A stretch of 64,000 nt of DNA from Candidatus Vogelbacteria bacterium (GCA_021414225.1 JAIOOX010000001.1:6624-70623), one strand, 5' to 3'; shown: positions 62 to 50,076, counted from the first letter of the stretch. The notes: a model not told the origin generated them from the sequence alone. Translations and numbers: made by a program.

Positions 62-856
62 TTATTGTCCGTCTACAAGGTCTAAAAGATTTGCAAAAAG
101 AAGTACCAAAGTCAGAGGGCCAACACCACCTGGTACTGGTGTAAACAAAACAGCTTTGTCAGCGCAGGCCGGGTCGGCATCACCGGCCAGCCGGCCACTG
201 GCTTCGGAAGTTGCGGCGTCGATAATGACCACTCCATCTTTGATCATGTCCAGTTTAATTAGCCCTGGCTGGCCGGCTCCCAAAATCAAAATATCAGCAT
301 GTCTGGTAATCGCTCCGACATCCACCACCTTACTGTCCACCACCGTCACATCATAACCATCACTAGCCAACCATAAAGCGACTGGGCGACCCACTAATTT
401 ACCCTGACCAACCACAACGATCTTTTTGTCAGCTAATTCAATCTGACTAGTTTTCAAAATCTCTTGCACTGCTCGCACTACCGGTGAAGGCACCTTGGCA
501 TCCTCACCCAAACTATCTGGATCTTTAGCCGGTGGAATCAAATTAATTATTTCCTCTCGATTAAGATGGTCGGGTAATGGTAGTTGCACCAACACCCCAT
601 CAATGTCTTGTCGAGCGACTAATTTTTCTATTTCTAATTTTAAGTCAGCTTCTACAATATCAGCCTCGTATTCAAATAGTTGAACATCCACTCCAACATT
701 TTCCCCCACTGCTTTTTTACGATTAATATATTTAACCGATACCGGATCATCTCCAACAATCACCACCGCTAAAGTAACCGGTTTACCTAAACCAGTTACT
801 TTAGCTCGAAGCTCGGCCTCGATTTTTTTACTTAAAGCTTTGCCGTCTAAAATCAT
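62..856 (-). CDS. folD: Bifunctional methylenetetrahydrofolate dehydrogenase / methenyl-THF cyclohydrolase (FolD)
   Basis: 264-aa ORF with a Rossmann-type NADP-binding fold. Motifs match FolD family, including VVIVGDDPVS, YINRKKAVGENVG, DGVLVQLPLP and DVTVVDS. Confidence 0.85.
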   Translation of the reverse strand: MILDGKALSKKIEAELRAKVTGLGKPVTLAVVIVGDDPVSVKYINRKKAVGENVGVDVQLFEYEADIVEADLKLEIEKLVARQDIDGVLVQLPLPDHLNREEIINLIPPAKDPDSLGEDAKVPSPVVRAVQEILKTSQIELADKKIVVVGQGKLVGRPVALWLASDGYDVTVVDSKVVDVGAITRHADILILGAGQPGLIKLDMIKDGVVIIDAATSEASGRLAGDADPACADKAVLFTPVPGGVGPLTLVLLFANLLDLVDGQ

Positions 857-5396: not shown

Positions 5397-6536
5397 TTAA
5401 CGTGGTCCCACAAACTCATTATGAATATCTCCTCGATGGTAAGCCAGGCGATAGCGTCGCATACCCATCAGAATTCCAAGACCAGCAAAAATAGTCAGCA
5501 TGTGAGACCCACCATAACTCATAAACGAAATCGGCAGACCAGTGACTGGTAAAACTCCAATATTCATACCAACATGAATCACAAAGTGACTCATTAAAAT
5601 AATAGACAGCCCTATAGCAAACAACGTTTCAAAATTGGTCGCCCCCACCAGGCCGGCCCCTAAAATCCTCCAAATAACCGTTCCAAATAAACAGAAAACA
5701 ATCATCACTCCAACAAACCCCCACTCTTCAGCAAAAGCGGCAAACACGAAGTCTGTCTGAAATTCCGGCAAAAATTTTAGTCGGGACTGACTACCAAACC
5801 CTACCCCCTTCCCTAACACCTGACCCGAACCAACCGCAACCGTGGACTGAAAAGCGTTATAACCCGCCCCCTGAATATCCGACAATGGATTAACGAAAGT
5901 TTTGATTCTGTTTTTTTGATAATCAGCTAAAACAAATCCCCATAACATCACAAAAGAGATCACCCCTAAACCAAAAACTACGGCTAAATGTTTTTTAGAA
6001 ATACCGGCCACCATGGTCATCCCCAACCAAATAAAAAATATGATAACAGCCGAACCAAAGTCTGGTTGGATAAAAATTAGTACGAATGGAATAAAAGCAT
6101 ACAAACCAGAAACTAAAATATGACGGATATGAGCAATCTCTACATGACGCCTAGTAAAATACTTGGCCAACATAATCACTAAAATCAACTTCATAAATTC
6201 CGCTGGTTGGAGTGATACCCCACCAACAGAAAACCAGCTGTACGCTGAACGGGTGGCCTGACCAAAAAGAAACACCACCAACAAAGCCAAGCAGCCCGCC
6301 AGATACAAGCTAGCCACCACTTCTGTTCGACGTAAAATCCGCCAATCGACAAAACTGAAGAATAAAAACGTGGACAAACTAGCCGTAATCCAGATCAACT
6401 GCCTCGTGAAATAGTAACTATCACTAGTAAATGAATTCATAGTAATCAAACCAGCTCCCAATAAAGGCAAGATAGCTACCACTAAAACCCAATCAATCGA
6501 CACGCCCCCAAAGCGTCGTAAAATAGTCTCCAACAT
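5397..6536 (-). CDS. SEDS-family peptidoglycan glycosyltransferase (RodA/FtsW/SpoVE)
   Basis: 379 aa, about 10 TM helices, with conserved SEDS motifs in the C-terminal half. Confidence 0.8.
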   Translation of the reverse strand: MLETILRRFGGVSIDWVLVVAILPLLGAGLITMNSFTSDSYYFTRQLIWITASLSTFLFFSFVDWRILRRTEVVASLYLAGCLALLVVFLFGQATRSAYSWFSVGGVSLQPAEFMKLILVIMLAKYFTRRHVEIAHIRHILVSGLYAFIPFVLIFIQPDFGSAVIIFFIWLGMTMVAGISKKHLAVVFGLGVISFVMLWGFVLADYQKNRIKTFVNPLSDIQGAGYNAFQSTVAVGSGQVLGKGVGFGSQSRLKFLPEFQTDFVFAAFAEEWGFVGVMIVFCLFGTVIWRILGAGLVGATNFETLFAIGLSIILMSHFVIHVGMNIGVLPVTGLPISFMSYGGSHMLTIFAGLGILMGMRRYRLAYHRGDIHNEFVGPR

Positions 6537-6544
6537 GATCAGTA

Positions 6545-7318
6545 TTATTGGCGCTTAATTCTAAAAGTATTGGCTCGAGGATAGAAATCAACGTATTCTG
6601 GAGTTTTGGTCAAAGCTTGAGGCCAAGTAAAATACACATCTTTAGTTTGGCCACGACCCAAATCTTGGATCAAAGTCGCACTCCCAGTAAAAGCGTTTTG
6701 TTGACCATCAGACACAACCACCGGCACGACAATATTTTCCAAATCGTAATTTGATTCATTCGTCACCAAAGCATGAAGCTTCGGTGTTTCATCTGCAAAA
6801 TTAAATTCTTTTCTAGTCACAGATAAAACTGGTTTAGCAATCTCTGGTTTATCCCAACCAGTATCACTCGTAAAATCAATAAAGGCCCGTAAAGCAATCT
6901 GGTTGTCAGTATTAATATTCGGTTCAAAAATAACAAACTTTTCTTGAGGATTAACGAACACCTCTCCCTTCCTGGTCGCCACCGTTGCGCCGAGGTCATT
7001 TGTTAATTTAATGGTGTAAAAAAGACGATCCACTCCCAAGGATCGATTTTGATTCTCAAACAAACCCATCACACTATAAGTACCAGCCACAATCGAAAAT
7101 GGCCTAATCCATAAAGTTTGAGTTGGAATAACTTCACTGCGACAAACCTTAGCACAAGGACCTCCACAATCTATTCCAACCTCTTCTTGATTTTGCCGAC
7201 CATCAGAACAAGTTGGTAGCGGTTTGGTATACCAATAACCAAAACCAGTCACTGCGACTATAAAAATAATCACTCCCAATAAATAAGCTAGTTGTCGGCG
7301 TCGGTTCCAAGATAACAT
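6545..7318 (-). CDS. Hypothetical membrane-anchored protein (CxxC-containing)
   Basis: Start moved to the internal ATG at 7318 (MLSWNRRR...). It is followed by a single TM helix and an extracytoplasmic domain. The longer ORF-track start would run into the tRNA. Confidence 0.45.
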   Translation of the reverse strand: MLSWNRRRQLAYLLGVIIFIVAVTGFGYWYTKPLPTCSDGRQNQEEVGIDCGGPCAKVCRSEVIPTQTLWIRPFSIVAGTYSVMGLFENQNRSLGVDRLFYTIKLTNDLGATVATRKGEVFVNPQEKFVIFEPNINTDNQIALRAFIDFTSDTGWDKPEIAKPVLSVTRKEFNFADETPKLHALVTNESNYDLENIVVPVVVSDGQQNAFTGSATLIQDLGRGQTKDVYFTWPQALTKTPEYVDFYPRANTFRIKRQ

Positions 7319-7562
7319 TAGGTCTATGGTACCAAAAATCCCACCCTCTGGCGAGGATGGGATTTTTGATTTTAAGTTTTTGAATACTCTGTTCCGGCGA
7401 CAAGCTACTCTCCCGCATAGCAGTACCATCGCCGCTACGGTGCTTAACTTCTCTGTTCGGAATGGTAAGAGGTGTGACCACCGCGCCAAATCGCCGAAAC
7501 AGAACATTCAAACGCTTTTGAAAACTGTGATGGAAAGCCAACATAAATGTTGGCGAAAAAAT

Positions 7563-7639
7563 TGGAGCGGATGGTATGGGACTCGAACCCACGTCTCCTT
7601 ATTGGCAATAAGGCACTCTACCAACTGAGCTAACCCCGC
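7563..7639 (-). tRNA. tRNA-Gly (anticodon GCC)
   Basis: Minus-strand cloverleaf:
- D-arm GCTC/AGTTGGTA/GAGT
- anticodon loop TTGCCAA between CCTTA/TAAGG stems
- T-arm GTGGG/TTCGAGT/CCCAT
- encoded CCA and discriminator U
The 3' acceptor strand carries 2 extra nt (a non-canonical bulge). Confidence 0.75.
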
Positions 7640-7707
7640 CCGAAAAATTTTAGGGATATCCCATCACAATTTTCAAACTTTAGGTAAAACACTAAATTAA
7701 ATTGACT

Positions 7708-7765: not shown

Positions 7766-7790
7766 ATGATTTTTAAATTTCCTAATAGGA

Positions 7791-10810
<3,020 letters not shown>

Positions 10811-11109
10811 TTTCCTATTAGGAAATTTAAAAACCATGTTTACAATTTTAGCCCTGTAACAATTTTATTTGTTACAAGTTTTGATTTAATGCTTACCTAT
10901 CCGCCTCCAGTATGGCAAAGACCCCAATTAAATTGGATAGCCATAAAGTGACGGGATTCAGTTATCAATGTTCCGATTCTTGGCTGAAAAAATTAAACCG
11001 CCTGTCAGGCGGATTTTAGGCACCTATGCAAAAAGCAAGAGTCCTTTAACCCGCGTGTTTTTGGTTTAATTTGATAATCATACTGACGCTCGTTAGTATA
11101 TACCCCACA

Positions 11110-42333: not shown

Positions 42334-42600
42334 ATGAAAAATAAATGTAACCTCGCTTTAGTTGGTTGGATTTTGTTAGCTATCGGTGGTCTAAACTGGG
42401 GCTTAGTTGGTATTAGTTATTTTGTTGAACGAAATTTAAATTTAGTAAACTTGCTGTTTGGCAAAATACCGACCCTAGAAGCAACTGTTTATATTGTCGT
42501 TGGTCTAGCTGCTATCGCTTCATTCCTACATTGTAAATGTAAAAAATGTCAGAATTGTTCTTGCTCTGACTCGAACTGCAATCACTGTAAAGTTCAGTAA
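42334..42600 (+). CDS. DUF378-family small membrane protein with a Cys-rich C-terminal tail
   Basis: ALVGWILLAIGGLNWGLVG matches the DUF378 double-TM signature. The tail is CKCKKCQNCSCSDSNCNHCKVQ. Confidence 0.6.
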   Translation: MKNKCNLALVGWILLAIGGLNWGLVGISYFVERNLNLVNLLFGKIPTLEATVYIVVGLAAIASFLHCKCKKCQNCSCSDSNCNHCKVQ

Positions 42601-42653: not shown

Positions 42654-43079
42654 TTAAGCTCTCCCTGTACTACCAAACCGTCCATCTCCCCGACTCGATT
42701 CTGACATTTCCTCAACCTCTTCCAGGGTGGCAATCTCAACCGGCATAACAACCAGTTGAGCAATTTTATCTCCTTTCTCAATCACATAAGGCTCTTGACC
42801 TAAGTTAATTAAATTAACATTGTACTCCCCTCGATAGCCTGCGTCATAAACTCCACCCATGGTATGAATACCGCCATTTTTTGGCAAACTTCCTTTATCT
42901 TTAACTAGGACCGCAAAGCCATTTGGAAACTCCAAAGCAAAACCAAGAAAAAATATTCTTCTTTCTCCAGGCTGTAATTCATATCTTTCAAGGGAAAATA
43001 AATCTAAACCAACATCGCCAGGATGAGCATAAGAAGGCAATTTAGCTTCTGGGTTAAGTTTCTTGATTTTTAAATTCAT
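42654..43079 (-). CDS. dut: dUTP diphosphatase
   Basis: dUTPase motifs (AHPGDVGLDLF, GERRIFFLGFA, SSRGDGRFGSTG). Confidence 0.9.
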   Translation of the reverse strand: MNLKIKKLNPEAKLPSYAHPGDVGLDLFSLERYELQPGERRIFFLGFALEFPNGFAVLVKDKGSLPKNGGIHTMGGVYDAGYRGEYNVNLINLGQEPYVIEKGDKIAQLVVMPVEIATLEEVEEMSESSRGDGRFGSTGRA

Positions 43080-43093
43080 ATTTATATCTAAAT

Positions 43094-43774
43094 TTAACTA
43101 AGTAATTTTTTAATCACAATTGAAATCTGTTCATGAATATCTGGTATAGGTTTAGGCCTATCCCCATCAGCGCAATCAATTACAGTCCAACCATATTGTT
43201 TGGCGACCTCTAAATAAGCTTGTGAGGCTTTTTCTAAGTGCTGGAGATCGGCTTCATGAATATCTCTTTTTTTACCTTGAGTGTACTCTCTAGCCGACTT
43301 CTGATCGACTAATTTTTGACCTACAGCTGGTGGCATAAACAAAATAATCACCGCATCTGGTTTTGGAATATTAAGCATTCCAAACTCTAAATCTAATAAC
43401 CAGGTCAGGAATTTTTGACGCTCAACCGGATCGGCAATTTTACCAGCCTGATGCCCAATATTAGAGGAGACATAACGATTAGCGATCACCACCCACCCTT
43501 CAGCCAACCACTGTCTGATCTCGGTCGCTTTATCAAAGCGATCTAAAGCATAAAACAATGAGGCCTTATAAGGTCCAACTTCATCCGCTGATCCATATTC
43601 ACCGCGTAAATATTTTTCAACAAACCAAGCACTGCCATTACCATATTGAGGAAAATCAACCATTTTCACTTTCCGCCCCTCAGTTGCCAGACGTTCGATG
43701 ATTAAAGCTGTCTGGGTCCCCTTACCTGAGCCATCCGTACCATCAATGACAATAAAAATACCTTGCTTAATCAT
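43094..43774 (-). CDS. tmk: Thymidylate kinase
   Basis: P-loop IVIDGTDGSGKGTQ and the DRY-like lid. 226 aa. Confidence 0.88.
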   Translation of the reverse strand: MIKQGIFIVIDGTDGSGKGTQTALIIERLATEGRKVKMVDFPQYGNGSAWFVEKYLRGEYGSADEVGPYKASLFYALDRFDKATEIRQWLAEGWVVIANRYVSSNIGHQAGKIADPVERQKFLTWLLDLEFGMLNIPKPDAVIILFMPPAVGQKLVDQKSAREYTQGKKRDIHEADLQHLEKASQAYLEVAKQYGWTVIDCADGDRPKPIPDIHEQISIVIKKLLS

Positions 43775-43776
43775 GC

Positions 43777-44958
43777 CTAATTAATCAGTTTTTTAATTAC
43801 CCGGTCTATTCGATCAGCTATTTTGACCATATCTGATTCTTTTTTACCTCTAGTAGTTTCAGCTGCCGTACCTAGACGAATACCTGAAGGATCTACTGGC
43901 GAGCGACTATCAAATGGAATGGTATTTTTATTAACAATAATCCCCACCTTCTCTAGAGCTTCACTCGCCGCTTTTCCGCCCACCCCTTTACCGTCCAACC
44001 AAGTGTCAACCAAAAGTAGATGACTATCAGTTCCACCAGAAATTAATCGCCAGCCCTTTTTCTTAAGAGCTTCACCTAGAGCTTTAGCATTTTTCACTAC
44101 TTGTTTAGCATATTTTTTATAGGCCTCACTTTGAGCTTCAAGCAAAGTAACAGCCACAGCTGCTATCTGATTCAGGTGTGGTCCACCTTGTAAGCCTGGA
44201 AATACCGCTTTATCTATTTTTTTATATAAATCCCGGTCATCAATCAGAGAAAAGATCAGGGCACTCCGTGGACCTCGCAAGGTCTTGTGCGTGGTCGTAG
44301 TGACCACATCAGCATACGGAAAAGGACTTGGATAAACTCCACCAGCTACCAAACCAGCAATATGAGACATATCCACCATCAGCAAAGATTCTCCAGCATC
44401 AGCTATCTCTCTAAATTTTTTCCAATTGATATTTCGTGGATAAGCAGTAAAACCAGCTACGATAATTGTCGGCTTTTCTTTGATTGCTATTTTCTTTAAT
44501 TCTTCATAATCAATAACTTCCGTTTCCTTAGATACACCATACGGCACCTGAACCCAAGCCTTACCTGTCATTGATACCTTATAGCCATGAGTTAAGTGTC
44601 CTCCATGGTCAAGCGACATCCCCATTATTTTACCGCCCAGTGGCACCAAACCAAGGTAGACCGCCAAGTTCGCTGGAGAGCCAGACAAAGCTTGAACGTT
44701 AACATGCCATTTTTTAGCACTTAATTTAAATAACTTAAGAGCTCGATCCTTACAGATATTTTCAATCTGATCCACAATTTCATTGCCTCCATAATAACGC
44801 AACCCAGAATATCCCTCAGCATACTTATTAGTTAACTCCGAACCCAAGGCTTTAAGCACGTCAGCTGAAACATAATTCTCTGACGCAATTAAATTAACTA
44901 CTTTCTTCTGACGTTTTTTTTCTATGTCTATTAATTTAGTGATTTGTTTATCTTTCAT
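43777..44958 (-). CDS. glyA: Serine hydroxymethyltransferase
   Basis: LIASENYVS motif and the PLP-lysine region TTTTHKTLRGPRSA. 393 aa. Confidence 0.9.
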   Translation of the reverse strand: MKDKQITKLIDIEKKRQKKVVNLIASENYVSADVLKALGSELTNKYAEGYSGLRYYGGNEIVDQIENICKDRALKLFKLSAKKWHVNVQALSGSPANLAVYLGLVPLGGKIMGMSLDHGGHLTHGYKVSMTGKAWVQVPYGVSKETEVIDYEELKKIAIKEKPTIIVAGFTAYPRNINWKKFREIADAGESLLMVDMSHIAGLVAGGVYPSPFPYADVVTTTTHKTLRGPRSALIFSLIDDRDLYKKIDKAVFPGLQGGPHLNQIAAVAVTLLEAQSEAYKKYAKQVVKNAKALGEALKKKGWRLISGGTDSHLLLVDTWLDGKGVGGKAASEALEKVGIIVNKNTIPFDSRSPVDPSGIRLGTAAETTRGKKESDMVKIADRIDRVIKKLIN

Positions 44959-44960
44959 AA

Positions 44961-46250
44961 TTATTTTTCTTTAATATCACTTAAACCTCGACGAACATCC
45001 CAACTATCCAATTCTAAATCTGAATACAAAACTAGATCAGGAAACAGGGTTTTCAATCCATAATGCATTTGGTGAGCAATTTTTCTTAGAGTTGGGTGAA
45101 CCAGTTTACCTGATCGCAACTCTACTGTATAAACGGTCGCCGGCAAGCCATAAGTAACTTTACATGGCGTATTGAAACCCATCGCCACGTAATATTGTTT
45201 TATCTCATCAGTAGCCGACAAAGACTGAATCGCTTCTGTCTGATTTTTAATTAAAGTCAAAGCCTCTAACATTAAGTCATCCGGTAACTGATTTAAGTAC
45301 CAATCATTAAAACCACACTGCGGGGTCAATAGCGGCATCCGGCAAACACCATTACGATGGCGTTGAATGTCTCTGAACGAACCAAAGTCCATCAAAAATT
45401 CAAAAGTAATAGTTCCTAATTCCGTCAAAAAATGAGGCAGGTTAGTTTTGATTGGCCGTTTAGCCAATATCTCTTTGTATTGACTCAAGCTGGAAGCATC
45501 AATAGTGGTTGAATAAATAAAATTAGGATTACAAACTTTAGGATTATAAAAAGTAAAATTTTCAACTAAATACTGACGATAATTTTCCTGCCCTTCATAA
45601 TTCTTGTGCGAGAAACTGTTTGGGTATTTTTCAGATAAAGCCTGGTGAATACTCTCGGCCACCGCCCTAACTTCCGGTAATGGATTATAACGCATTAAAG
45701 CTAGTTTATCGGCCGCCTGACGTAAGTTGGTATGCCATGACAATTGAGTTGTTGATCCTGCTGGTAAAAACGAACGCAAGATATCAAAAGAACGAGCAGT
45801 AATAGCTTTCAAATACACATTTTCATCTTCTTCTGGCCGACGCGGATAGCGTTTTTGTAAGTAAGCAATCAACGGCTCTTTACTCTTACTATAAAAATCT
45901 ATCCAATTCTGAATAATTTTTTTAGATTCTGGTGTACCTAGAGGATCAACTATTTCTTGTTGAGCAAAATCAATATAGCGAGAACTAGTTTCTTGGCCAG
46001 AGTAAAGAGGCCAGTCTTGAACAGCTTTTGCCACCAACATACTTACTCCTTCAATAAAAACCGTCGTACTACCGCAATCCGCAATACTGGCATGACCATA
46101 GCCAACATAAAATTTCTCCATAAACTTACCTGAACCCGTTTTCTTAACCTTCTCCGCATGTTCCACCACACTCTCAGCACTCCGAGAGTATAACGCTTGC
46201 ATCATCGCAATATCTTCTGGATTAAATTCATCGTAGACAAAAGTTTTCAT
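44961..46250 (-). CDS. Divergent ThyX-like flavin-dependent thymidylate synthase family protein (double length)
   Basis: Alignable to the ThyX core (GHASIADCG...QETSSRY against ThyX GHE..FEH...RHRxxxxxxSxRY). The first RHR is replaced by DWP and an RHR lies later (IQRHRNG). A second ThyX-like helix is present (LRSGKLVHPTLRKIAHQM). The gene sits inside the dCMP deaminase-glyA-tmk-dut operon. Confidence 0.5.
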   Translation of the reverse strand: MKTFVYDEFNPEDIAMMQALYSRSAESVVEHAEKVKKTGSGKFMEKFYVGYGHASIADCGSTTVFIEGVSMLVAKAVQDWPLYSGQETSSRYIDFAQQEIVDPLGTPESKKIIQNWIDFYSKSKEPLIAYLQKRYPRRPEEDENVYLKAITARSFDILRSFLPAGSTTQLSWHTNLRQAADKLALMRYNPLPEVRAVAESIHQALSEKYPNSFSHKNYEGQENYRQYLVENFTFYNPKVCNPNFIYSTTIDASSLSQYKEILAKRPIKTNLPHFLTELGTITFEFLMDFGSFRDIQRHRNGVCRMPLLTPQCGFNDWYLNQLPDDLMLEALTLIKNQTEAIQSLSATDEIKQYYVAMGFNTPCKVTYGLPATVYTVELRSGKLVHPTLRKIAHQMHYGLKTLFPDLVLYSDLELDSWDVRRGLSDIKEK

Positions 46251-46252
46251 AA

Positions 46253-46789
46253 TTATTTCATATTATCGTAAACTTCTAATTCATTATTCAAAAGCTCATA
46301 CTCCACACCAGCGTCTTTAAAAATTTCTTTACTCCGACCGCCACGATGATAATCCTTCAAAGCTACTACTCGCTTAATTCCAGCATTGATCACGATCTTG
46401 GCACAAATATAACAAGGGGTCATGTGACAATAAACCGTCGCCCCATCCAAACTAACTCCGACTCGAGCCGCTTGAGCGATCGCGTTTTGTTCGGCGTGAG
46501 TTGTCCGCACACAATGCAATGACTGGGTACCATCATCGTTTAAAACCGTACTCAGCTCATGACCAACTTCATCACAATGAGCCACCCCAGCTGGAGCACC
46601 CACATAACCAGTCGTTAAAATTCGTTTGTCTCTTACAATTACACAGCCAGACCGACCTCGATCACAAGTCGCTCGACTGCCAACCAACTCAGCAATACTC
46701 ATAAAATATTCGTCCCAAGACGGGCGACGATAAGACTCTTTGACCTGTTTATCTTCAGTCATATTGGTCATTATACTCCTCCCACTCAA
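46253..46789 (-). CDS. Deoxycytidylate (dCMP) deaminase
   Basis: Zinc-binding HAEQNA...PCYICAKIV cytidine/dCMP deaminase motifs. Confidence 0.85.
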   Translation of the reverse strand: MSGRSIMTNMTEDKQVKESYRRPSWDEYFMSIAELVGSRATCDRGRSGCVIVRDKRILTTGYVGAPAGVAHCDEVGHELSTVLNDDGTQSLHCVRTTHAEQNAIAQAARVGVSLDGATVYCHMTPCYICAKIVINAGIKRVVALKDYHRGGRSKEIFKDAGVEYELLNNELEVYDNMK

Positions 46790-46916
46790 AACACCCAGAC
46801 TTGTTTTGAGACTTTATTTGTTTTCTAAAATACCACCCTCCCCCAGAAAGCCTTGCTGCCAAAAGTCTGAACCAGTCCAATTAAGATACCTAGTCATTTT
46901 TTCCGAATGTGGATAA

Positions 46917-46949
46917 CAAAAACCCCCAAAGCTTACGCTTTGGGGGTTT
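46917..46949 (-). terminator. Rho-independent terminator after rplK
   Basis: aaaaacccccaaagcttacgctttgggggtttt. The secE-nusG-rplK unit ends here, without rplA. Confidence 0.7.
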
Positions 46950-46960
46950 TCAAGATTTAT

Positions 46961-47386
46961 TTAATCAATCACATCTACACCCATTGACCGAGCGGTCCCC
47001 ATAACAGTCTTGATAGCTGTTTCTAATGAAGCAGCGTTCAGATCAGGCATCTTTCGTTCAGCAATTTCCTTAATTTTAGCTTTAGTGATTTTACCAATCT
47101 TACTAGTATTTGGCTTACCAGAACCTTTCTCTACCCCAATCGCTCGCATAATCAAGTTCGCTACCGGTGGAGTTTTAAGCACAAAATCATAACTACGATC
47201 TTCGTAAACTGAGATAATAACCGGGATAACGTCTCCCACCATTTCAGCAGTAGCTGCGTTAAACTTCTGAACGAAGTCGCCAATGTTAACCCCGGCTTGA
47301 CCGAGAACTGGACCAACTGGTGGTGCTGGATTAGCTTTACCGGCCGGAATCTGTAATTTAACTTGTTTTACAATCTTTTTTGCCAT
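46961..47386 (-). CDS. rplK: 50S ribosomal protein L11
   Basis: 141 aa. [26 protein letters not shown], the L11 N-terminal signature. Confidence 0.92.
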
Positions 47387-47407
47387 ATTAGTGGTTTATA
47401 GACTACC

Positions 47408-47953
47408 TTAAATCTTCTTAACCTGCAAGAAGTCTAGTTCGACTGGAGTTTCGCGTCCAAACATAGACACCAATACCCTGACCTTACCTCTTTCATTGTC
47501 GATCTCACTAACCTTTCCTTCAAACTCTTTAAACGGACCATCCACAATAGTGATAGATTCCCCAACCACTAGATCAATAGCGTGCTTAGCTGAATCGTCA
47601 CCCATTCGACGGAATAGCTCATCAACCTCTTTCTTTTCTAGTGGTACCGGCACAGTTCCCGCTCCAATAAAACCAGTTACTCGAGGTGTATTTCGAACCA
47701 CATACCAAGAATCATCAGTAACAATCATATCTACCAAAACATAACCAGGATAAATTTTCTCTTCAATGGTCACTCTCTTGCCACCTTTAATTTTAACTTT
47801 GTTTTCACTAGGAACTAAAACATTAAAAATCTTATCTTCCATCCCTAAAGATTCAATACGTTGTTTCAAATTCCGAGCTACAGCATTCTCATAACCTGAA
47901 TAAGTATGAATAGCATACCAATTACGTCCTTGATCTAATTCTTGTTTAGCCAT
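47408..47953 (-). CDS. nusG: Transcription termination/antitermination factor NusG
   Basis: NGN domain (WYAIHTYSGYENAV) and a C-terminal KOW (GESITIVDGPFKEFEGKV). Confidence 0.9.
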   Translation of the reverse strand: MAKQELDQGRNWYAIHTYSGYENAVARNLKQRIESLGMEDKIFNVLVPSENKVKIKGGKRVTIEEKIYPGYVLVDMIVTDDSWYVVRNTPRVTGFIGAGTVPVPLEKKEVDELFRRMGDDSAKHAIDLVVGESITIVDGPFKEFEGKVSEIDNERGKVRVLVSMFGRETPVELDFLQVKKI

Positions 47954-47965
47954 AGATATTATTTT

Positions 47966-48151
47966 TTAGCCTAAAATGACCGCTCGTAATATTAAATTAA
48001 AAATAAAATCAAACAAACCAAGGTAAGCTCCAGCCAAAATAGAGGTGATAATCACTACCACTGTAAAAATAACCGTATCTCTACGAGTCGGCCAGTTAAC
48101 GTGACGCAATTCACTTCGAGTACCCTTAATATATTCTGAAAGCCAAGACAT
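47966..48151 (-). CDS. secE: Preprotein translocase subunit SecE
   Basis: 61 aa with a single TM helix. Position upstream of nusG-rplK. Confidence 0.8.
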   Translation of the reverse strand: MSWLSEYIKGTRSELRHVNWPTRRDTVIFTVVVIITSILAGAYLGLFDFIFNLILRAVILG

Positions 48152-48163
48152 AATATTTGTTGT

Positions 48164-48186
48164 AAATTAAAACGCCCCGCAGGGCT
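48164..48186 (-). other. 5'-proximal hairpin plus U-tract between the secE promoter and the secE start (attenuator or leader stem)
   Basis: Minus-strand gccctgcggggc followed by gttttaattt, located between the -10 element and the secE ATG. Confidence 0.4.
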
Positions 48187-48192
48187 CTTGCC

Positions 48193-48221
48193 ATATTACC
48201 CCGCTAAAGGAGAAATGTCAA
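48193..48221 (-). promoter_or_regulatory. Near-consensus sigma70-type promoter for secE-nusG-rplK
   Basis: Minus strand reads TTGACA - 17 nt - TAATAT (plus-strand tgtcaa 48216-48221 and atatta 48193-48198). Lies about 40 nt upstream of the secE ATG. Confidence 0.55.
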
Positions 48222-48229
48222 CCAAACAA

Positions 48230-48520
48230 GGGCCTCAAAATAACAAAACTCGGGGGTGCCAGAGGACACACCCGAGTCACACACGAGACCACAGCCTACC
48301 GATGACACACCAGCTGTTGATGCTGTTGACGATCATACGCCACCGCACCAGAAACATTGATGGTTGTCGGTTTAGCAGGATCGCCTTCCAGTTTCAACCC
48401 CCGGAGGGCCGCCCGATAAAAAAGAATATCGGGCCAAGAGCCCTCGAACAAAATACCTGGCCAATTTGAAAAGATAACCGATTCCGTTTCCGTTTTCACA
48501 GGCACCTCCCGTTTGTTCAA
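48230..48520 (-). ncRNA. GC-rich, highly structured about 290-nt non-coding region (candidate structured RNA of unknown class, or a decayed element)
   Basis: Local GC is well above the flanks. Multiple stable hairpins (cccgata/tatcggg, ctcggg.../...cccgag, ggccaag.../...cctggcc). Both overlapping ORFs have implausible composition or a TTG start. No match to the RNase P, tmRNA or SRP motifs checked by eye. Confidence 0.25.
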
Positions 48521-48550
48521 TCCAGCCTTTAGAAAACCATATTATAAAAT

Positions 48551-49569: not shown

Positions 49570-50076
49570 TTATTGTTTTCTTAAATCTTCAATGTTTTTA
49601 GTTAGGATTTCGATTTGTTTCTTAATCGTCTCCAAAGTCGCCACCGTCATATCTTCAATCTCATCATCCTGTTTTTCTATTTCATCCACATCTTGTTGAA
49701 TCTCGTCAACATTGTGTTGAATTTCATCCACATCTTGTTGCATCTCATCAACATCTTCTTGAATAGTATCAACTCCTGCTTGAATCTCCTCAATATCTTC
49801 TTCTACTTCTTCCAAACTAGCCGTGTTTCGATTAACAGTCATTTGAATGAAGATGGCTAAATAAATCGCCTCCAAAGAAACAATGGTCGTTAACACTAGT
49901 AACACCCGATCCCAATTAACACCTAGCAAGCCCAATAAAAAAGCTGAAATAAACAAGGCAGTATGAACAGCTAAGGATTCGGTTGAACCAATCCAGGCAG
50001 TCGCTTTGGTGGAAATTTTTTCCAAATTAAACCTTTTATTCTTTTTTGATTTTCTTTTTTTAGACATTGCCGTCAA
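49570..50076 (-). CDS. DUF1003-like membrane protein with a repetitive acidic coiled-coil C-terminus
   Basis: Two TM helices with WIGSTESLAVHTALF...NRN (DUF1003-like), then heptad repeats DVDEIQQ/DVDEMQQ/NVDEIQQ. Confidence 0.5.
   Translation of the reverse strand: MTAMSKKRKSKKNKRFNLEKISTKATAWIGSTESLAVHTALFISAFLLGLLGVNWDRVLLVLTTIVSLEAIYLAIFIQMTVNRNTASLEEVEEDIEEIQAGVDTIQEDVDEMQQDVDEIQHNVDEIQQDVDEIEKQDDEIEDMTVATLETIKKQIEILTKNIEDLRKQ

Follow-up and report, generated by a model that had tools for sequence, protein, structure and literature searches.

A tandem ThyX-fold protein in the dTMP operon of a Candidatus Vogelbacteria bacterium, with active-site residues apparently divided between its two domains

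How can a protein of twice the usual length, with Asp-Trp-Pro in the place of the catalytic Arg-His-Arg (RHR) motif, be a flavin-dependent thymidylate synthase (ThyX)? This question is raised by a gene in a 64,000-nucleotide stretch of DNA from a Candidatus Vogelbacteria bacterium (GCA_021414225.1, JAIOOX010000001.1:6624-70623), which we call the window. The gene lies at 44961-46250 on the minus strand, has an ATG start and a stop codon at 44961-44963, and encodes 429 amino acids (aa), about twice the length of Thermotoga maritima ThyX (220 aa). An earlier note on this DNA had described it as a double-length ThyX-like reading frame in an operon for the synthesis of deoxythymidine monophosphate (dTMP), and had suggested a permuted or internally duplicated ThyX. 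The reading frame is a real gene, with 3,935 homologues at an expect value (E) of 1e-3 or lower. We hold it likely, with a probability of about 0.7, that the gene encodes a flavin-dependent thymidylate synthase which arose by tandem duplication of ThyX, fusion and complementary loss, and which takes a dimeric form with two active sites.

The Pfam Thy1 profile, whose gathering score is 24.8, matched residues 14-211 with 62.1 bits, and the match covered profile positions 12-191 of 191. Only the N half was matched above threshold; the C half remained below it, at about 16 bits among relatives. The N-terminal ThyX domain (residues 1-215; 45606-46250, minus strand) was also aligned to a canonical ThyX profile by hhalign with a probability of 96.2% and E of 2.2e-9. 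The rest of the gene (44964-45605, minus strand) encodes an inter-domain segment (about residues 213-264) and the C-terminal ThyX domain (residues 216-429). In the AlphaFold2 model of the full-length protein, which has a predicted local distance difference test score (pLDDT) of 83.8 and a predicted template-modelling score of 0.85, the secondary-structure order of residues about 1-210 is repeated in residues about 240-405. Structure prediction combined with a fold search also gave a ThyX fold for the C half by itself. Among the C halves of 19 relatives, 10 had weak co-linear matches to Thy1 (best E 3.8e-4), in which C-half residues about 60-190 fell on profile positions about 54-191. Since the order of secondary structure is repeated and the Thy1 matches on C halves are co-linear, the protein is a tandem duplication of the whole ThyX fold, with two complete domains.

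For the residue register, a profile of each half built from 97 sequences was aligned by hhalign to the canonical ThyX profile, and positions are given in published numbering; the T. maritima ThyX reference agreed with its database entry at 100% identity over the full length. In Mycobacterium tuberculosis/T. maritima numbering, the positions of interest are RHR 95-97/78-80, Arg199/174, Ser71/Thr55, Arg190/165, Ser105/88, Arg107/90, Tyr108/91 and Arg172/147. Conservation was counted in two sets, one of 72 species genomes and the other of 96 diverse representatives with 33-56% identity to the window protein. All motifs below are encoded on the minus strand.

At the RHR position (T. maritima R78-H79-R80) the N half has D79-W80-P81 (46008-46016), with D kept in 67 of 70 species, W in 63 and P in 53; among the representatives the site is mostly D-x-x, and RHR is found here in 0/96 and in none of the species set. 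The sole RHR of the protein, R297-H298-R299 (45354-45362), lies at the corresponding position of the C half. It is present in 72/72 species and in most representatives, of which about 12 have RQR and one RNR. The uracil-binding Arg174 of T. maritima (M. tuberculosis R199) corresponds to R379 of the C half (45114-45116), which is invariant in both sets (72/72 and 96/96). The N half has L185 or M186 at this place and the nearby R187 is variable, so it has no conserved Arg there.

The remaining ligands are found in the N half. The loop that binds deoxyuridine monophosphate (dUMP), S88-G89-R90-Y91 in T. maritima, is S89-S90-R91-Y92 (45975-45986), whose S, R and Y are kept in 70/70 species; about 88 of the 96 representatives have S.RY and the rest S.RF, S.RA or S.RC. 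The C-half counterparts of S88, R90 and Y91 are L307, a gap and T309, and S.RY is absent from the C half of all members of both conservation sets. G52-H53-A54-S55 (46086-46097) aligns with T. maritima G52-H53-E54-T55 (His69 and Ser71 of M. tuberculosis). Its G, H and S are present in 69/69 species that have a residue at those columns, and the site reads (G/N)HS in nearly all of the representatives. No conserved GH.S motif was seen in the C half, where the H53/T55 columns fall outside the aligned region. N175-L176-R177 (45720-45728) corresponds to N163-A164-R165 (M. tuberculosis R190); N175 and R177 are kept in 71/71 species, opposite G368 and P370 in the C half. The dUMP phosphate ligand R147 (M. 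tuberculosis R172) corresponds to R159 (45774-45776; 71/71 species), the C-half counterpart of which is an invariant Gln, Q352. At four further T. maritima positions the N-half and C-half residues are K75 and R293 (R74), A76 and D294 (Q75), E87 and M305 (E86), and D156 and E349 (E144).

The ThyX motif RHR(X)7S is thus split family-wide: the N domain has D79-W80-P81 ... S89 and the C domain R297-H298-R299 ... L307. No single domain of the tandem ThyX contains RHR(X)7S. The full set of ligands for flavin adenine dinucleotide (FAD) and dUMP (RHR, R174, T/S55, R165, S88, R90, Y91 and R147) is present collectively, divided over the two domains. In this register, the N and C halves hold complementary subsets of the canonical active-site residues. 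The earlier note had correctly placed DWP at the RHR position of the N half and an RHR in the C half, and its suggestion of an internally duplicated ThyX with an active site drawn from both halves is supported by the two ThyX folds and by the complementary invariant residues, which are consistent with a composite site. Its wording needs correction in two respects: the supposed half-domains are two whole ThyX domains, and the protein is not permuted. Circular permutation was ruled out, as each half follows the order of the Thy1 profile and of T. maritima ThyX from end to end of its alignment.

The canonical ThyX is a homotetramer of 222 symmetry in which each active site is built by three subunits (PMC6514825). 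In M. tuberculosis numbering, the FAD of subunit A is held by the RHR of A together with Ser71 and Arg190 of subunit B, with RHR and Ser71 acting as FAD phosphate ligands; for the dUMP stacked on that flavin, A provides Arg95 and Arg199, and subunit C provides Arg87, Ser105, Arg107 and Tyr108 (PMC6514825). Arg172 binds the dUMP phosphate (PMC9571937). We call the contributions of the three subunits roles A, B and C.

We propose that tandem duplication and fusion of an ancestral ThyX gene were followed by the loss of different catalytic residues from each copy, so that the two losses are complementary. The C domain retains residues of role A only (R297-H298-R299 and R379), and the N domain only those of role B (H53/S55 and N175/R177) and role C (S89/R91/Y92), plus R159. 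In the four sites of the canonical tetramer, the roles (A,B,C) fall to subunits (a,b,c), (b,a,d), (c,d,a) and (d,c,b). When positions a and d are taken by C domains and positions b and c by N domains, the sites (a,b,c) and (d,c,b) would be complete, and the other two would be without RHR and Arg174. Each domain would then have lost just the residues serving the two dead sites. Because this arrangement yields two complete sites, a homodimer is most likely the working form: two 429-aa chains would make a pseudo-tetramer with two FAD/dUMP sites, each composed of one C domain and both N domains. The reaction would be dUMP + methylenetetrahydrofolate (CH2-THF) + reduced nicotinamide adenine dinucleotide phosphate (NADPH) -> dTMP + tetrahydrofolate (THF). 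Arg147/172 is predicted to act in role B or C, because it is kept in the N domain as R159 and is Gln in the C domain. What the data show are the two ThyX-fold domains, their complementary invariant residues, the equal purifying selection on both and the setting among dTMP-pathway genes, with gene fusions; that the protein forms a pseudo-tetrameric dimer, has two sites, binds FAD and acts as a thymidylate synthase is inferred.

Several results weigh against this interpretation. The thyX equivalog model TIGR02170 gave 25.8 bits against a cut-off of 87.9, so that by this model the protein is not a canonical thyX equivalog. The alignment of the C half with the canonical profile is weak (probability 15%, E 1.8e-3), being co-linear over 114 columns, and the C-half register therefore depends on co-linearity and on the fold match. 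The best model of the C half had a pLDDT of 82.8, and the other four had just 57-68. A hidden Markov model search of PDB sequences with the C-half profile did not reach any ThyX. When the halves were compared with each other, BLASTP of N half against C half gave no match, hhalign with close relatives gave no significant alignment but only a 21-residue match of terminal helices, and hhalign with 97 diverse sequences gave an E of 0.016 and a probability of 3%, with a sensible register in the C-terminal part only. Sequence self-comparison thus fails to show the internal duplication, and for this reason the fold search was needed. An equivalent of M. tuberculosis Arg87 is missing from both halves; T. 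maritima is likewise without it, having Ile70. Finally, if Arg172/147 acts in role A, the partition of roles is less clean than proposed.

Two further features of the C domain may be mentioned here. The protein ends in a tail, W417-D418-x-x-R421-G422 (44985-45002, minus strand), whose W and G are present in 72/72, R421 in 71/72 and D in 69/72 species. It is followed by the invariant D425 and I426, and residues 422-429 have a pLDDT below 50. We know of no counterpart of this tail in canonical ThyX; it could extend as an arm into an active site. Right after the RHR of the C domain, the close family has invariant N300, G301, C303 and R304 (residues 300-303 at 45342-45353, minus strand). C303 and R304 vary among distant representatives, and the N300-R304 stretch takes the place of canonical Ser83-to-Asn85.

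It may be supposed instead that a single domain is catalytic and that the other is a degenerate scaffold or regulator, with sites formed among like domains as in the canonical homotetramer. The N half is indeed far closer to canonical ThyX, and the C half is barely recognisable by sequence. However, the N half is without RHR and the Arg174 equivalent, and the C half is without S88/R90/Y91, R147 and N163/R165. The two halves are also equally conserved: the mean pairwise identity of the N and C halves is 0.69 vs 0.66 in the species set and 0.42 vs 0.38 in the diverse set, and the C half is richer in invariant columns (38% vs 26%). In the segment 213-264, just 6% of the columns are conserved at 95% or more. 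By these measures, both halves are under equal purifying selection. A decaying pseudo-domain would not be expected to hold RHRNG.CR and R379 invariant across 33-56% identity. We consider a single catalytic domain unlikely and prefer a composite site to which both domains contribute.

The gene stands in a row of five genes, all on the minus strand, which agrees with the operon named in the earlier note (dCMP deaminase/ThyX-like/glyA/tmk/dut). The dCMP deaminase, which converts dCMP to dUMP (46253-46789; Pfam dCMP_cyt_deam_1, E 7e-25), is encoded 2 nt upstream of the ThyX gene. Downstream are the genes for serine hydroxymethyltransferase (SHMT), which regenerates CH2-THF (43777-44958; Pfam SHMT, E 1e-158; NCBIfam NF000586, 524 bits), dTMP kinase (Tmk; 43094-43774; Pfam Thymidylate_kin, E 9e-18) and dUTPase (Dut), which converts dUTP to dUMP (42654-43079; TIGR00576, 123.8 bits against a cut-off of 102.55). 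The Tmk product is also matched by dTMP kinase models of NCBIfam, but under their curated cut-offs. The spacings along the row are 2, 2, 2 and 14 nt. In this operon dCMP deaminase and dUTPase would supply dUMP, SHMT would supply CH2-THF and Tmk would consume dTMP. The folD gene for methylenetetrahydrofolate dehydrogenase/cyclohydrolase, which the earlier note had seen at the start of the window, is there as well (62-856, minus strand; both Pfam THF_DHG_CYH and THF_DHG_CYH_C match); it is far from the dTMP operon and outside it. A scan for promoters and terminators around the operon found nothing above the shuffle expectation.

The same neighbours recur in relatives. The flanks of 80 related loci contain dCMP deaminase in at least 46, Tmk in at least 46, Dut in at least 37 and SHMT in at least 23; these counts are lower bounds because many loci end at contig ends. 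In some relatives the deaminase is fused to the tandem ThyX in proteins of about 627-633 aa (about 627 aa in P0051, P0097 and P0099 among others; 633 aa in P0079). One relative, L002 (GCA_964413295.1), has both a 633-aa fusion of this type (5784-7685) and a 407-aa Tmk-dUTPase fusion (8992-10215).

On the upstream side of the operon, a secE-nusG-rplK (L11) row at 46790-48151 (minus strand) leads straight into it, without rplA. A tblastn search with the L1 protein of L002 as query found no L1 gene (rplA) in the window; in L002, rplA sits between rplK and the deaminase-ThyX fusion.

The genomic setting also bears on the idea that the protein is a ThyX-fold enzyme with another substrate or chemistry, such as a PolB-like UMP/dUMP methylase (UMP, uridine monophosphate), a pyrimidine hydroxymethylase or a nucleic-acid methylase, and is not the thymidylate synthase of the cell. 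Such an enzyme would agree with the score under the thyX equivalog cut-off and with the unusual invariant features that have no assigned role, namely C303, R304 and the WD..RG tail. However, the gene is flanked with 2-nt spacings by the genes for dCMP deaminase and for SHMT-Tmk-Dut, this context is found in dozens of species and extends to dCMP deaminase-ThyX fusions, and all neighbours either provide dUMP or CH2-THF or use up dTMP. In addition, the dUMP-specific residues S88, R90, Y91, R147 and R174 are all kept collectively. Another chemistry is thus improbable. The retained dUMP and FAD ligands, the operon and the recurrence of its context in relatives point instead to thymidylate synthase activity of the tandem ThyX.

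The family is large. The best 120 homologues are about 430 aa long and have 62-99% identity, mostly 62-68%. They are already labelled 'thymidylate synthase ThyX' or 'FAD-dependent thymidylate synthase', and are from Patescibacteria where a lineage is named. The C-half signature was found in at least 576 species-representative genomes, and the named lineages include Falkowbacteria, Paceibacterota, Nomurabacteria, Taylorbacteria, Vogelbacteria, Komeilibacteria and Peribacteria. An exhaustive profile search returned 1,109 clusters at 50% identity, 251 of them with E <= 1e-30, and in nearly all full-length cluster matches the signature lies in the C-terminal part of a protein of 427-550 aa. The tandem ThyX is thus neither rare nor isolated; it is the standard form of a very large family, mostly of Patescibacteria.

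N and C halves occur together in 79 of the 80 loci, and their fusion appears to be obligatory. Stand-alone C-half genes and a split two-gene form were also considered and rejected, as the matches of 190-270 aa that were examined are fragments: most of the C-only fragments begin within the N half, a scaffold gap splits one, and another is cut off at a contig end. Many 'binchicken' records of metagenome-assembled genomes with the gene (L008, L009, L013, L023 and others) carry the name 'uncultured Gammaproteobacteria', 'Bdellovibrionales' or 'Saccharibacteria' in their titles. As taxonomy, these names look like unreliable placeholders and not like a sign of a wider host range.

The earlier note had also raised the matter of another thyA or thyX gene. 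In the 64 kb of the window, tblastn found neither thyA nor another Thy1-like gene, and neither gene was found besides the tandem ThyX within the 80 related loci, which span 2-13 kb. Bacteria of the candidate phyla radiation rely heavily on salvage, which would fit an inactive ThyX relic in a cell that obtains dTMP by salvage or from thyA or a canonical thyX elsewhere in the genome. Although horizontal acquisition of thyA by some Patescibacteria has been reported (PMC12455944), a relic is very improbable given the very strong purifying selection on the gene, with dozens of invariant residues including all catalytic ones at the identities seen in most of the best 120 homologues, its presence in so many species genomes, its operon with, and sometimes fusion to, dUMP-producing enzymes, and the results for thyA and thyX in the window and the related loci.

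The tandem ThyX may be compared with known enzymes of the family. Canonical ThyX (TM0449, PDB 1O26/5CHP; M. tuberculosis ThyX, PDB 2AF6/3GWC; PF02511; EC 2.1.1.148) has one domain of about 190-260 aa, whereas the tandem ThyX has two domains in 429 aa. The motif RHR(X)7S is intact in the former; in the latter, RHR is in the C domain only and the Ser/Arg/Tyr loop in the N domain only. The canonical enzyme is a 222 homotetramer with four sites, whereas the tandem ThyX would be a dimer with one two-fold axis and two sites per four domains. The tandem ThyX has, in addition, the conserved WD..RG tail and, between its domains, a variable stretch of about 50 residues, and it scores under the TIGR02170 cut-off. 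PolB, the UMP/dUMP methylase of Streptomyces cacaoi (PDB 4P5A), is a ThyX-family enzyme with an altered substrate range, but it has a single domain, with 226 residues in the solved chain. The polB gene is located in a nucleoside-antibiotic gene cluster, unlike the tandem ThyX gene with its dTMP operon.

A similar route has been taken by the 'monomeric' dUTPases of herpesviruses such as Epstein-Barr virus (EBV), in which an enzyme with interface sites was duplicated and fused and its motifs were lost complementarily, leaving fewer composite sites per chain. The EBV dUTPase is an analogy only and not a homologue, since its fold and reaction are unrelated and its ancestor was a trimer, not a tetramer.

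The ThyX of Chlamydia (CT632 in C. trachomatis) was reportedly characterised biochemically by Griffin et al. in J Biol Chem in 2005. It has about 529 aa, about twice the canonical length. Chlamydia-labelled proteins were absent from the best 120 matches of either two-domain query. If Chlamydia ThyX belongs to the tandem family, the family already has one characterised member. Chlamydial ThyX was omitted from earlier ThyX phylogenies for lack of sequence identity (PMC6171736).

In the full text of open-access PMC and bioRxiv (subscription literature lay outside the scope), our searches met with no account of a ThyX that is duplicated or has a split motif, or of the enzyme of Patescibacteria. 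Databases already annotate the gene as 'ThyX', and what is new appears to be the architecture and its mechanistic implication. The tandem ThyX does not form a new enzyme class; it is a widespread variant in the architecture of a drug-target enzyme, apparently undescribed so far. We see an even chance for the wider statement that Patescibacteria use a so far undescribed ThyX class, in which the tandem fusion is obligate, the roles are partitioned, the homodimer is a pseudo-tetramer with two composite sites, and RHR(X)7S is never found within one domain.

The window contains other features. A 23S ribosomal RNA (rRNA) gene of 3,040 nt, against a model of 2,925 positions, is located at 7781-10820, followed by tRNA-Gly at 7567-7639 and a 5S rRNA gene at 7392-7498, all on the minus strand. 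No 16S rRNA gene was found in the 64-kb window, and for this reason the 16S gene appears to be unlinked from the 23S-5S pair. A 320-aa open reading frame (ORF) without a Pfam match (6545-7507, minus strand) overlaps the 5S rRNA gene with its 5' end; probably its start was miscalled or the ORF is spurious. The stretch of about 400 nt from secE to a DHH-family gene (48152-48550) is without a convincing ORF, and neither a tRNA nor an Rfam match at the gathering threshold was found there. Convergent with the dTMP operon is a gene for an 88-aa DUF378 membrane protein (42334-42600, plus strand) with a Cys-rich tail, HCKCKKCQNCSCSDSNCNHCKVQ. A 168-aa protein (49570-50076, minus strand) has weak matches to DUF677, DUF948 and DUF1003, and its C-terminal half contains about six acidic repeats of the form (V/I)D(E/T)(I/M)Q.

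ThyX has been studied well and is a target for antibacterial drugs, and its canonical site is awkward to dissect since each subunit plays three roles in three sites. If the proposed architecture is true, the tandem ThyX would be a natural asymmetric ThyX, in which role A falls to one domain and the other two roles to its partner. With the roles on separate domains, one role could be mutated without touching the others, and half-of-the-sites questions would become directly approachable. The finding also concerns annotation, since the family fails the curated thyX equivalog model and Pfam detects only one of its two domains. The family would also be a clean and deeply conserved case of an oligomeric enzyme that evolved by duplication, fusion and complementary loss. 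De novo dTMP synthesis is within the minimal repertoire of groundwater Patescibacteria (PMC12455944). The tandem ThyX is probably a main dTMP-making enzyme of Patescibacteria, and it is probably by this enzyme that a very large bacterial radiation makes dTMP de novo.

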